64,000 nt of DNA from an uncultured Bacteroidales bacterium (GCA_963791065.1 CAWBQN010000018.1:269697-333696); one strand, 5' to 3'; positions 8,038 through 30,789 are shown, counted from the stretch's first letter. The notes: generated by a model not told the origin, from the letters alone. Translations and numbers: made by a program.

Positions 8038-9159
8038 TTATTTTTTGCCATCAATATACCTGTTGCCATTAATAAGCTTCCGCATCTCTAACACATTGAC
8101 AGGTCCCTGTATACGATAAATGATATTCCCGCCCTGTTCCACGAGCATGGTATAAGGAAGCGCACCTGACCATTTTGGATCGACAGCTTCAACAAAGGCT
8201 GAGTTATTATCGCTGTTAAATATGTAGTTCTTATTAGATGCCTCATTCTTTTGCAGGAACTTCAGCACATTGTCTTTCCTTGATAACTGATCTGCATTGA
8301 TTGATACAAATTCAAACTGCCGGCTGCGGTAGATACGATCGATAATTACAAAATCAGGAAATTCCTGTACGCATGGACCGCACCATGAAGCCCATACCGT
8401 AATTAATCTTAGTTTATCGGATTTATTCCGGATGAGTGTTCTTATCATGGATGTATCTATGTTCTCTAGTGTTATAGGAAGTTCGGACCATTCTTTATAA
8501 AGCTTTGAGGTCCCTTCTGTTTTCCAAGCCCATTTGGTAGAACATCCGAATACTTTTGTTACGGGTTTATCAATTTTCCTGTCCTCCAGAACAGCATCAA
8601 TAGCATTACTGAGTGTTTCAGCTTTTCCATTTTCCATTGACGGATCGATGCAACCTACATACTGCAGTTTGCGGTTCTTATCGAAAACATATGCATGAGG
8701 AGTTGCCTCCGGTCCATATGCAATTGCGGTTTTTTGATCATCGCCATCATACAGGTATGGGAATTTGAAATCCTTGTCTTTTGCACGGATCTTCATGGCA
8801 TCAAAAGAATCATCGAGATCTGACCAACCCTGTTCCCATAAGTTGAGAGATTTCATACTGTTCGGTGAAATCACTACAAGCGACACTCCTTTTCGTGTGT
8901 ACTTGTCATAAATGTTGTTAAGCCGGTCCTGGTATGCCTGAGCAGTGGGACAGTGGTTGCAGCTGAAGACGATCACCAGCACTTTAGATCTTGCAAAATC
9001 GGATAATGAATATACATTATCATCTACACCTTTCAGTTTGAAATCAGGTGCCCGGGATCCAATTTCGAGAGTTTTTGGTTGCGGATGACTTTCCTGTCCG
9101 GATACTGCATAGCCTGTCAGTAATAATGGGATCAATGCCAGGGAGACTATTTTTTTCAT
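8038..9159 (-). CDS. Secreted two-domain redoxin (AhpC/TSA + TlpA-like thioredoxin)
   Basis: Signal peptide; APDF, CNHCPTA, YPYLYD-like FPYLYD, ATPH, and a second domain with WASWCGPC. Confidence 0.88.
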   Translation of the reverse strand: MKKIVSLALIPLLLTGYAVSGQESHPQPKTLEIGSRAPDFKLKGVDDNVYSLSDFARSKVLVIVFSCNHCPTAQAYQDRLNNIYDKYTRKGVSLVVISPNSMKSLNLWEQGWSDLDDSFDAMKIRAKDKDFKFPYLYDGDDQKTAIAYGPEATPHAYVFDKNRKLQYVGCIDPSMENGKAETLSNAIDAVLEDRKIDKPVTKVFGCSTKWAWKTEGTSKLYKEWSELPITLENIDTSMIRTLIRNKSDKLRLITVWASWCGPCVQEFPDFVIIDRIYRSRQFEFVSINADQLSRKDNVLKFLQKNEASNKNYIFNSDNNSAFVEAVDPKWSGALPYTMLVEQGGNIIYRIQGPVNVLEMRKLINGNRYIDGKK

Positions 9160-9269
9160 TTAAGTATTCTTTAAAATCTCCCACAAATTAGGAATAAATT
9201 GTAAGACCGCAAAGCACGCAAAGCCCGCCTTCGTGTCTCTGGCACTCCAGACGACTGGTTTCTAATTTC

Positions 9270-9536
9270 TTATATATTAAAAGCTGTCAAATGGTCGAAA
9301 GAGGAGTACTGAGCGATATATTTATCTGATTCAGATTCATGAACAGCTTCTTTCAGAATCAGGGATCGTATATACTCCTTTGAATCATTAAGGAATTCAA
9401 CCTGTCTTTTTGTGAGGACCCCGGTGGTGGCATAATGTTCCTTCAATGAAGCTATAAATTCGTGTTGTATTGTATTCAGGTGTTCCTGATTGTTCTCCAG
9501 GTAATTAAGGAGGATTTTGATTTCCTGACGGTCCAT
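9270..9536 (-). CDS. Hypothetical protein (88 aa)
   Basis: ATG start, fills the gap, co-oriented with neighbours; no recognisable motif. Confidence 0.55.
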   Translation of the reverse strand: MDRQEIKILLNYLENNQEHLNTIQHEFIASLKEHYATTGVLTKRQVEFLNDSKEYIRSLILKEAVHESESDKYIAQYSSFDHLTAFNI

Positions 9537-9691
9537 TATCTATAAGTATTTAATTAAACAATTACAGATACCTAAATTATGGCATGGCAGGATTTGGAAA
9601 ATTAAAATTGCATTAAGATGAGATTAGCTTCGGATTAATCTTTTTGGATCTGGCCAGTTAAAGTTGAGGTTGAGGTTAGTCAGGTGACCGG

Positions 9692-10090
9692 TTAAATGTC
9701 TTTATTGAAATGTTTTACAATTAACTGGTTCAGATATGCTTTGTTGAAAGGTTTTGGGAAGTAATCATTAATTAAAGTTCCTGAGAAATCTTCAACTAAT
9801 TCGGATAATGCAGCAGCAGTCATTACAAAAATGACAACCTTTTTATTTATTTGCCGGATTCTCCTGGTAGCTTCAAAACCATCCATGTTATGCATATAGA
9901 CATCCATTAAAATCAAATCTATATCGGGGTTATTCTCAACTGCGCTGACAGCATCTTTTCCACTGTCAGCAAAAATAATTTCACTGCTATAAATTTTAAG
10001 CATCTCACCAAGAACAATCCTTATCGGGTTGCTATCGTCAACTACTAAGATTTTGAGATTATATGTCTTCTTTTCCTGATCTGAAATCAT
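9692..10090 (-). CDS. Single-domain response regulator (CheY-like receiver)
   Basis: ILVVDD, DLILMD..M..MDG, MTA, FPKPF. Confidence 0.9.
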   Translation of the reverse strand: MISDQEKKTYNLKILVVDDSNPIRIVLGEMLKIYSSEIIFADSGKDAVSAVENNPDIDLILMDVYMHNMDGFEATRRIRQINKKVVIFVMTAAALSELVEDFSGTLINDYFPKPFNKAYLNQLIVKHFNKDI

Positions 10091-10172
10091 AATTCCTATT
10101 TTGAGTTCAAAGAAAGCTTAAATTGATAATAAAGCAAGTTACTTAAATAAACAAAAAACGCAAAGAAGTAAA

Positions 10173-10193
10173 TAAGGAGTAAGGAGTAAGGAG
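10173..10193. repeat. Heptamer TAAGGAG x3
   Basis: Perfect tandem 6 bp beyond the ABC permease stop. Confidence 0.85.
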
Positions 10194-10199
10194 ATTATT

Positions 10200-29248: not shown

Positions 29249-29327
29249 AGTCTGAATGAATGAAAATTTGATATTTATGGTTGCTTAGAGCTAAGTTATG
29301 AAATTTATCGGTTGAATAGTAAAAAAT

Positions 29328-29396
29328 GGCGTCAGTTGTCATGCGTCGGGCGTCAGGAAATCACCGCGCACCGCATGTCACCTACCGCACACCGTA
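29328..29396. repeat. Two adjacent heptamer arrays (GGCGTCA-like x4; CACCGCA-like x4)
   Basis: ggcgtca gttgtca tgcgtcg ggcgtca / caccgcg caccgca ... taccgca caccgta. Confidence 0.75.
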
Positions 29397-29397
29397 T

Positions 29398-29767
29398 TTA
29401 AGGTCTGATATCAAAAAAACCGATTCCAACAACCGTCAGAGCAGCAGAAATAAGTGTTAGAATAAGCAATGTCTGTCCTGCTATTTTATAATTGAACGTC
29501 GAATATGGTTTTGATCTTTCGAATGCAGCCATCCTGAATACAGTGCGGTTAAAAAACCGAAAGTATCAGGTCATTTCGCCTGAGGTAAGTCAGACCATGT
29601 ATTTTCTCAAAAGGGAACGCAAACCATAAAAAAAATCCGACTACACTTAAAATGCTGTAAACTGCAAACACAACGATAGTCATGAAAGCAAATTTTCTCA
29701 GAAAGCTTCCATTTAGTATCTCCGGATTACCCGGCTGAATTCCATTTTCAGAAAATAATTCGCTCAT
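29398..29767 (-). CDS. Hypothetical membrane protein with frameshift near 29550
   Basis: ORF 29549-29767 continues in another frame (NRTVFRMAAF...LTVVGIGFFDIRP*) across a T run. Confidence 0.5.
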
Positions 29768-29891
29768 TTGTGTTTTGGATTTATTGTAAAGAACTAATGC
29801 TCAAGTATAAAGACTAAATAAAATCCGGACTGCTGCACCGTAAAACGCACAAAATCCGTAAAGCCTGTTATGAACACTTTTACAAATGGAC

Positions 29892-30417
29892 CTAGAATGT
29901 AATTGAAGGAGCTTTGAAGGTATTAGGATCATTGGTAAGTCCATGTTTATAATTAATTACTTCCATGGTCTTTGGTGCAATTTTAATAAGGACAAATGTG
30001 TTCTGCCAGTTCGGAATACCATTCCAGTAATCCCGTTTCATTTTAATCAGTAATTCTTTATCATCTATAACTTCTCCTATTCCTGTAATGGCAACGTAAC
30101 CTTTTGCCGAATTGTGGTTAGCATAATAAACACAAACTTTGGGATTGCTTTTTATTTCTCTTACTTTCCGGCTGGTTCTTGAAGTAGCGAACCAGGTAAT
30201 TAATTCTTCATTTGCAGGGAAGGGATTCATGGTACGTATATGAGGCTGGCCCGTGGAATCAATTGTTGCAAGAGCACAAAATGTGGTTTCCTTAATTATC
30301 TCATGTGCTGCAACGATTATTGAATCCCGGTTTAATGTTGTTTGAGCATTACCCTTTAAACAGAATACAGAATACAACCAGGCACGCCAATGTTAGAAAC
30401 GATCTTTTCTTTTTCAT
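29892..30417 (-). CDS. Pyridoxamine 5'-phosphate oxidase-like FMN-binding protein; frameshift in leader
   Basis: LATID..G.P..R.M, WF.T...SRKV.EI..NP.V; ATG at 30417 is out of frame with the main ORF 29892-30377. Confidence 0.82.
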
Positions 30418-30490
30418 ATAAATTGAAGTTAGGTTAAACGATTACATTACATATGATCTGTTAACATGATTTTACCCTATTGAATAGATA

Positions 30491-30789
30491 TAAAATAAAT
30501 AATCCCGCCTTCTGCGGGATTCATTTAAGTGTTGCGGACTTTGTCCGCCGTAGCTCGCATATTCATTTCTCGTAGTCACCCTATCGGGCTATGGCGAGCG
30601 AAGGCGGAGAGAGGGGGATTACCTGCGGTGATCCCTGTGGGGGGACCTTGCAACACTTAAATGAACCCTTCGGGTTTTATTTATTTTTCTTCAGATCCTT
30701 CAGAAAGTAAACTTTCTTCGGCTCTTCAGTAAAATAAATAATCCCGCCTTCTGCGGGATTCATTTAAGTGTTGCGGAGAGAGGGGGATT
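30491..30789. repeat. tRNA-tail/terminator repeat: direct copies 30491-30538 and 30730-30777, inverted copy 30650-30687, 17-nt tRNA tail copy 30604-30620
   Basis: 48-bp exact direct repeat; gcggagagagggggatt at both 30604 and 30773. Confidence 0.9.
30739..30760 (-). terminator. Probable intrinsic terminator downstream of tRNA-Ser
   Basis: AATCCCGC-AGAAG-GCGGGATT stem followed by ATTTATTTT on the minus strand; duplicated at about 30500-30521. Confidence 0.65.

Follow-up and report, generated by a model that had tools for sequence, protein, structure and literature searches.

The described arrays closest to the one reported here are groups of attC sites that have no integron-integrase (CALIN), and lone attC sites likewise without one (SALIN). 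Their origins are treated in the available part of PMC8618304. For the integrase IntI1, off-platform insertion is described in the available part of Loot et al. (10.1101/2022.09.11.507474), with adjacent deletion and attC loss as predicted outcomes, and for Bacteroidetes the available part of PMC9024848 reports one complete integron. The stretch analyzed here, referred to as the window, comprises 64,000 nucleotides from an uncultured Bacteroidales bacterium (GCA_963791065.1 CAWBQN010000018.1:269697-333696; contig C18 of genome G000, 4.35 Mb, 98% complete). Behind tRNA-Ser(GGA) it carries an array of 27 genes or gene remnants at 8038-30377, 26 of them on the minus strand like the tRNA. The stretch between tRNA-Ser(GGA) and a redoxin gene is a gene-turnover hotspot, and with moderate confidence we read the array as an eroded depot of integron cassettes inserted off-platform, reshuffled by recombination and colonized by repeats.

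The count, from open reading frame (ORF) calls and Pfam matches, agrees with an earlier note made from the sequence alone, which had described about 27 unrelated genes, 26 on the tRNA strand, as an integron-like hotspot with repeats at the insertion junctions and an enzyme acting in trans. Pfam confirmed redoxin, receiver, MacB/FtsX permease, two START, three alpha/beta hydrolase or esterase, GNAT, AraC, XRE, C-N hydrolase, isochorismatase, GreA-like, DUF6544, DUF4440, and PNPOx genes; the VOC label given in the note to 17650-18045 found no Pfam or NCBIfam match. Co-oriented single ORFs of unrelated function, a trait of integrons and CALIN, make up 26/27 of the array. The 40 window ORFs scanned included no integrase or transposase, as the note had it, and PADLOC returned only HTH matches, in 1/23 window proteins. 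Overwriting of 5' ends, also suspected there, was confirmed for the esterase at 22083-22805, which corresponds to residues 55-288 of the intact gene in the sister species G173.

Co-orientation (25/26 versus 0.6 expected, P = 6e-5) is not a regional bias, because only 72/157 (46%) of the nearby C18 genes lie on the minus strand. Ordinary strand bias combined with chance clustering of repeats could appeal to the seven runs of at least 25 co-oriented ORFs in the genome; the mixed orientation of the neighbors, the lack of a clear third-position skew on C18, where replication skew is too weak to call a leading strand, and the recurrence of the pattern in five other genomes all speak against it. As a full explanation it was refuted by the comparative data, and we consider it extremely unlikely. 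G000 C6:190000-253600 holds two minus-strand runs of 28 genes that are mostly unrelated; repeats are scarce there, and no attC was matched.

Thirty-one loci downstream of the same tRNA-Ser were compared, across species within the genus and with one genome per species. Long co-oriented arrays were present in 6/31 loci (G000, 22 kb; G173, ~12 kb; G175, ~10 kb; G050, ~19 kb; G148, 42 kb; G154, 50 kb), and 8/31 (G016, G007, G134, G049, G048, G018, G080, and G157) had 0 to 3 genes before a redoxin, ThuA, or GH2 flank; the remaining loci were rearranged or held other islands. The tRNA-Ser was inverted in G050, and a different island lay directly behind it in G047 (L103) and G053 (L107). The ORF directly behind the tRNA in these two (2/31 loci) is, to judge by its N-terminus, putatively integrase-like. 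The arrays share a skeleton in largely kept order (XRE, CBAH, START, AraC pair, DUF4440, GreA-like, efflux, receiver, and 88-aa genes), except that the AraC pair sits further on in G148. Conserved gene order, which the note had named as a sign against gene capture, holds in part. The redoxin gene (8038-9159) occurs at 9/31 loci and belongs to the conserved flank; the note had started the array there.

The DNA colinear with G173 (flanks at 95%) came to 775 kb and contained 58 gene-scale junctions: 11 kb of the array accounted for 8 and the remaining ~765 kb for 50, a concentration that bears out the proposed hotspot. The array junctions showed short microhomologies and left gene remnants behind; of the differing segments, 5/7 begin within 57 bp after a stop and 5/7 end within a gene. 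This strong 5'/3' remnant asymmetry between G000 and G173 was dropped as support, since either type of remnant can be found in the set of six arrays and automated calling is noisy. In metagenome contigs over 24900-31100, none of which spans the whole array, one repeat stack was replaced and one 242-bp segment was extra, and no trustworthy gene-excision joint was found; a peat-metagenome contig was ~97% identical over 25702-29424. At four-fold sites, shared array genes differed by 0.41 to 0.62 compared to 0.90 to 1.25 in the flanks (G000 versus four more distant genomes, equal saturation). Since their silent-site divergence is half that of the flanking genes, exchange between species after their split is suggested. 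The asparaginase tree placed the six array genomes in one starred clade of 9 rows, alongside three non-array genomes.

These data also suit a generic hotspot without mobile elements, in which congener DNA would enter by homologous or homology-facilitated illegitimate recombination with shared genes as anchors, cassettes would be occasional cargo, and orientation would be maintained both through recombination and because antisense clash with tRNA read-through is selected against. The conserved skeleton order, the low silent divergence, the microhomology junctions with remnants, and the lack of attC in the window argue for it, together with a competence-family gene in the genome, DprA 4 kb from the tRNA, and the commonness of such hotspots in the available part of PMC5635113. 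Alone, it does not account for G148's block of chained attC, for the attC that stand on the same strand next to homologs of window genes (both described below), or for single-gene modules in near-perfect co-orientation. We regard it as possible, if on the unlikely side; it overlaps the last two steps of the mechanism proposed below. The dprA gene lies within 32770-37178 with a glutamate dehydrogenase gene on each side, 2 to 6 kb upstream of the tRNA. Elsewhere in G000, a 47-kb island behind tRNA-Ser(GCT) (C15:246000-293000), absent from G173, contains paired recombinases and primase-like and Rhs-like genes, labeled by eye.

A candidate for the enzyme in trans was found on another contig. Behind a 508-aa tyrosine recombinase at C15:571953-573479 stand co-oriented genes with ~355-bp elements between them; C4 carries further such elements, and C14, C19, and C25 carry remnants (integron-like loci C15:571953-582000, L160, and C4:40000-67100, L161 and L162). 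The elements have attC anatomy, with a YAAC start, a GTTA end, and chained neighboring cores, and the bottom-strand hairpin was the more stable in 9/9 sites folded (z -2 to -8). Different cassettes stand behind the same integrase in G173. The C15/C4 locus shows features expected of an integron: attC that have R boxes and fold as bottom-strand hairpins, cores that chain, and turnover of cassettes. Its integrase is not a classical IntI as defined in the available part of PMC9668308: it lacks the IntI-specific segment, reaches 186 bits with TIGR02249 against a cut-off of 265, aligning to profile positions 2-178 and 241-314 only, and has NF040815 as its best family (214 versus 220). A close match to the integrase was present in 33/61 relatives at E<=1e-60. 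In G148, 162 motif matches were counted, the majority of them along a run of ~230 kb that follows the integrase, and the superintegron run of G169 extends over at least 350 kb. No tyrosine recombinase match of the genome lies on C18, and the window, having no adjacent IntI, is not a complete integron. On sequence grounds, the C15 integrase is the likely candidate for an enzyme in trans, in keeping with the earlier note.

Integron cassettes were found at the tRNA-Ser locus itself in G148, whose array carries five long and two partial attC, all on the array strand and with chained cores, and three core footprints (mean under the null, 0.10). This block lies at 0.53-0.54 Mb and the integrase at 3.84 Mb, the remote position that marks a CALIN. 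The first cassette starts at a GTT core without attC upstream, as would be expected for off-platform insertion. Four attC remnants were present in the G154 array. Along the distal tail of the G148 superintegron, the attC pass from intact sites to fragments and then vanish, leaving co-oriented genes with none between them. Another array in G000 (C14:1-18500, L163), made up of ~26 single co-oriented genes, has three attC remnants and no repeats and is probably the eroded tail of the genome's own superintegron. Genes of the tRNA-Ser arrays recur in the G148 tail or the C14 array, including the window alpha/beta hydrolase at 84% (tail).

Homologs of window genes had an attC piece within 1.5 kb at ~12/105 de-duplicated loci, all on the same strand, compared to 1/101 loci, on the opposite strand, for core or flank genes (P = 0.003, with kin and loci not independent). 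The count excluded the tRNA-Ser arrays and the G000/G173 loci; with efflux-gene loci absent and most of the G148 superintegron (3.665-3.825 Mb) outside the part covered, window genes are undersampled for links to cassettes. The attC-adjacent families were START, CBAH, GreA-like, hydrolase, second START, and the three-gene permease block. For 2.2% of G000 ORFs, an attC is no more than 3.5 kb away. The GreA-like gene (18623-19147) occurs in 94/212 genus genomes with different neighbors at nearly every one of 30 loci and has the appearance of a dispersed cassette. The orthologous arrays carry typical cassette cargo: toxin-antitoxin pairs, SMODS/SLATT, and Arr. SMODS/SLATT defence-like genes lie beside attC remnants at L083 (G154) 6551-8658, and an Arr-family gene at L086 (G050) 9149-9577.

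The cassette-depot reading can be set out in six steps. First, in the genus the 508-aa integrase that lacks the IntI-specific segment is followed by long cassette arrays whose attC-like sites measure ~355 bp. Second, five chained long attC run from a non-attC start in the G148 locus, and their insertion would have been the work of the distant integrase by the attG route; by analogy with IntI1, we infer that the C15 integrase may use such an off-platform route. Third, later cassettes would join at these attC, which would give a single orientation. Fourth, attC decay, visible in the G148 superintegron tail and presumed for the window, would leave a co-oriented row of single genes. Fifth, the lower silent divergence of the shared genes would stem from recombination with congener DNA. 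Sixth, microhomology deletions leave gene remnants, and the repeat stacks change fast.

Several results weigh against this sequence of events. The window array holds no attC piece or terminus detectable with a genus-specific attC profile and terminal position weight matrices (0 profile hidden Markov model matches, 0 matrix matches), and as no attC is left in it, it is not a CALIN. Core footprints numbered 0/16 in the window, in a weak test whose positive controls gave 1/16, 4/50, and 2/31 (7/97 in true arrays). No attC was found in the G175 array. About 89% of the homolog loci have no attC nearby (XRE 0/7, AraC pair 0/5-6), and several array units are multi-gene. Array genes shared by G000 and G173 show no excess similarity (silent difference 0.13 to 0.15 versus 0.09 to 0.16 in the flanks). 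Repeats occupy 0/21 gaps of the superintegron tail compared to 47/102 of the arrays; mere relocation of that tail would thus not yield the depot, and the depot reading does not account for the enrichment in repeats. Activity of the integrase on the long attC-like sites is a prediction.

Repetitive extragenic palindromes and their paired form (REP/REPIN), with their associated tyrosine transposases (RAYT), are a familiar pattern of hundreds of extragenic, often inverted modules after stops, with a small cognate gene wrapped in them. In the window, repeats begin within 14 bp past a stop in 6/12 array gaps measured and within 45 bp in 10/12, and different families are stacked at 19148-19294, 23365-23477, and 25469-25706; the gaps of the dcw cluster carry none. 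On all three points, the earlier note had been right, as it was on the positions of the repeats. Genome-wide there are 642 intergenic tandem-repeat calls of period 5 to 12, and ~350 gaps hold the repeats; families A to C reach 19 to 32 per 100 kb of intergenic DNA compared to 0.3 to 0.7 elsewhere, resembling REP in their many extragenic copies. Repeats were present in 8/13 tandem gaps of at least 100 bp in the array versus 215/1011 elsewhere in the genome (P = 0.002), and in 47/102 gaps of the six arrays versus 19/150 in control DNA of the same genomes (~3.5-fold). The local excess in the arrays is real. In G000, repeats flank 10/10 four-helix-bundle genes and 1/1 GxxExxY gene against a baseline of 91/500 short ORFs, an association that the note had named for other genomes; of the seven Y1 genes in the genome, none is flanked. 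Four-helix, GxxExxY, and RAYT genes were not found among the 69 scanned of 116 listed ORFs of the orthologous arrays. Very repeat-dense regions of G000 lie at C13:1-25000, C27:224000-242000, and C2:60000-90000, and the latter two include six of the ten four-helix-bundle matches.

Repeat-guided capture would make the hexamer, heptamer, and decamer modules recombination or nicking sites for a four-helix-bundle or GxxExxY protein acting in trans, each event leaving a stacked half-element. It gains from the enrichment and the flanked genes above, from array breakpoints that touch a repeat in 4/8 tRNA-proximal and 1/8 distal cases, from two clean deletion junctions within a repeat (G173 into START; G148 into the DUF4440 3' end), and from array gaps that hold mostly single or chimeric arms (27/28 versus 105/117 in the rest of the genome). 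On the other side, repeats occur genome-wide and are commoner beside genes with high third-position GC content (33%) than with low (10%), that is, beside native- over foreign-looking genes; only 12/100 gene-scale breakpoint ends outside the array touch one; no family, spacing, or crossover point is fixed; and GreA homologs outside arrays have a repeat nearby at only ~7/25 loci. Repeats also turn over without gene gain (24/48 small junctions versus G173), and such fast turnover makes alignments stop at repeats anyway. A variant with repeats as carrier arms bracketing genes was rejected, as the arm order does not fit. Because the repeats are genome-wide, turn over without gene gain, and meet few breakpoint ends outside the array, they are probably not dedicated or general capture sites; they are probably passengers, at most local break points. 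We hold repeat-guided capture to be distinctly unlikely. The note's view of repeats as insertion marks was not supported.

In an unlikely two-stage scheme for soil/peat Bacteroidales, the non-canonical integrase would seed satellite depots at the tRNA and the 355-bp attC would be replaced by four-helix-bundle/GxxExxY tandem-repeat modules. These would become nicking or recombination anchors by which single ex-cassettes could be swapped across species at a common locus that has neither an att site nor an enzyme of its own.

The tRNA 3'-end copy noticed earlier is present, with a 48-bp direct repeat at 30491/30730. The duplication is the end of a hairpin element that trails tRNA-Ser in most relatives, including the array-less G016, G018, G134, and G150. 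The copy, like the putative integrase-like ORF behind this tRNA at 2/31 loci, would favor an additive island, in which one element after another integrates at the tRNA 3' end as in tycheposons and the integrases are lost later. The array shows no 3'-end scars between modules; deeper tRNA-end scars were absent from the six arrays, except for a duplicate beside an insertion sequence in G173, and no integrase fragments occurred among the 40 window ORFs or the scanned array ORFs (69 of 116 listed). The tRNA-scar model was rejected after the search of the six arrays, and an additive island is very unlikely. The hairpin element has three tandem copies in G154 and an insertion-sequence-like ORF inside it in G173. 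The features of the locus are listed in the table.

Table. Features of the window between tRNA-Ser(GGA) and the redoxin flank, listed from the tRNA outward
Feature	Position	Strand	Remark
tRNA-Ser(GGA)	30773..30861	-	Proximal hotspot anchor; found in relatives' loci
Nested hairpin element (~180 nt) trailing tRNA-Ser	30491..30772	.	Ends in tRNA 3'-end copy; second partial copy
PNPOx-like gene	29892..30377	-	Start apparently frame-broken; intact in G173
Hypothetical gene	29399..29767	-	240-bp internal deletion vs G173 (203 aa there)
CACCGC-type repeat	29340..29398	.	Contains G173 deletion junction (3-bp microhomology, into START)
Isochorismatase	28649..29248	-	64% paralog in attC-remnant array on G000 C14
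XRE-HTH membrane protein	27551..28410	-	Split into two ORFs; intact 285 aa in G154
C-N hydrolase (CBAH)	26421..27539	-	Homologs attC-flanked at other Bacteroidales loci
Family-A repeat arm	26349..26394	.	
GNAT	25707..26420	-	Listed ORF begins within repeat; real start probably near 26267
Stacked repeats, family A and heptamers	25469..25706	.	Other DNA instead in ~97%-identical peat-metagenome contig
START protein	24866..25468	-	Skeleton gene: six arrays and G016; attC-adjacent homologs elsewhere
GCCCTGW heptamer array	24777..24863	.	2 bp from START stop
AraC (DUF6597) and small partner gene	23478..24682	-	Pair moves together
Hexamer and family-A repeat stack	23365..23477	.	
DUF4440 gene	22789..23364	-	Stop abuts esterase remnant
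Esterase, 5'-truncated	22083..22805	-	Versus G173 gene
BD-FAE/alpha-beta hydrolase, 581 aa	20228..21973	-	
DUF6544 gene	19295..20071	-	G173 keeps only 3' remnant
Chimeric repeat stack, two heptamer families	19148..19294	.	
GreA-like gene	18623..19147	-	Skeleton gene; attC-bracketed cassette in L310 and L316
Membrane hypothetical, 133 aa	18167..18568	-	
TAAGTAG heptamer array	18052..18124	.	
131-aa ORF (VOC of the earlier note)	17650..18045	-	No family match
Apparent 3' gene remnant directly after stop	17440..17649	-	Judged by eye
Alpha/beta hydrolase and second START	15285..17095	-	Hydrolase homolog (84%) in eroded tail of G148 superintegron
Cation-efflux gene, split, only inverted gene	14582..15212	+	Intact attC-flanked cassette in G148 array
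Hypothetical	13831..14373	-	Homolog 29 kb past last listed attC of G169 superintegron, same strand
Three-gene block: carboxypeptidase-like, 237-aa, MacB/FtsX permease	10200..13732	-	Directly behind long attC in G020, G007, G053
TAAGGAG x3	10173..10193	.	Unit also flanks four-helix-bundle gene at C17:126.5k
Lone receiver and 88-aa hypothetical	9270..10090	-	Distal skeleton of arrays
Redoxin	8038..9159	-	Conserved distal flank; directly behind tRNA in array-less relatives

The locus serves as a case study in how co-oriented accessory genes can come to stand in a row without integrase or attC. The six orthologous loci appear to show stages, from an intact attC block through remnants to none, and the origin of hotspots without mobile elements becomes testable in one genus. 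The data suggest that cassette-derived genes in Bacteroidota are undercounted, and the repeat enrichment gives a handle on the function of the four-helix-bundle/GxxExxY repeat elements. In the literature searched, neither this repeat-rich kind of array nor long-attC integrons of Bacteroidales were described, and the supplements of integron surveys may list such arrays.

Compared with known systems, the window shares with CALIN and SALIN and with attG off-platform insertion (available parts of Loot et al., 10.1101/2022.09.11.507474, and PMC8618304) its co-oriented unrelated genes far from an integrase, and the G148 block shares with the latter its probable start by insertion at a non-att GTT. 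It differs from CALIN, as far as these texts describe them, in having no attC left, in the ~355-bp sites of its relatives and the integrase without the IntI-specific segment, and in a depot that is tRNA-anchored, shared between species, and repeat-rich; by analogy, the array would work like the end state of a CALIN. The hexamer to decamer tandem units (6 to 10 nucleotides) differ from REP/REPIN-RAYT, their cognates being four-helix-bundle/GxxExxY genes and not Y1/RAYT (0/7). Tycheposon islands of Prochlorococcus (available part of 10.1101/2020.12.28.424599) are likewise tRNA-anchored with piecemeal gain and loss, whereas the window has no integrase modules and no scattered partial tRNAs. With the hotspots lacking mobile elements in the available part of Oliveira et al. 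2017 (PMC5635113), the window array has in common the high, rapid turnover inside conserved flanks, the lack of a mobile element or integrase, and signs of recombination; it departs from them in being cross-species within a genus, in exchange among the inner genes, in strict co-orientation, and in the link to cassette genes.

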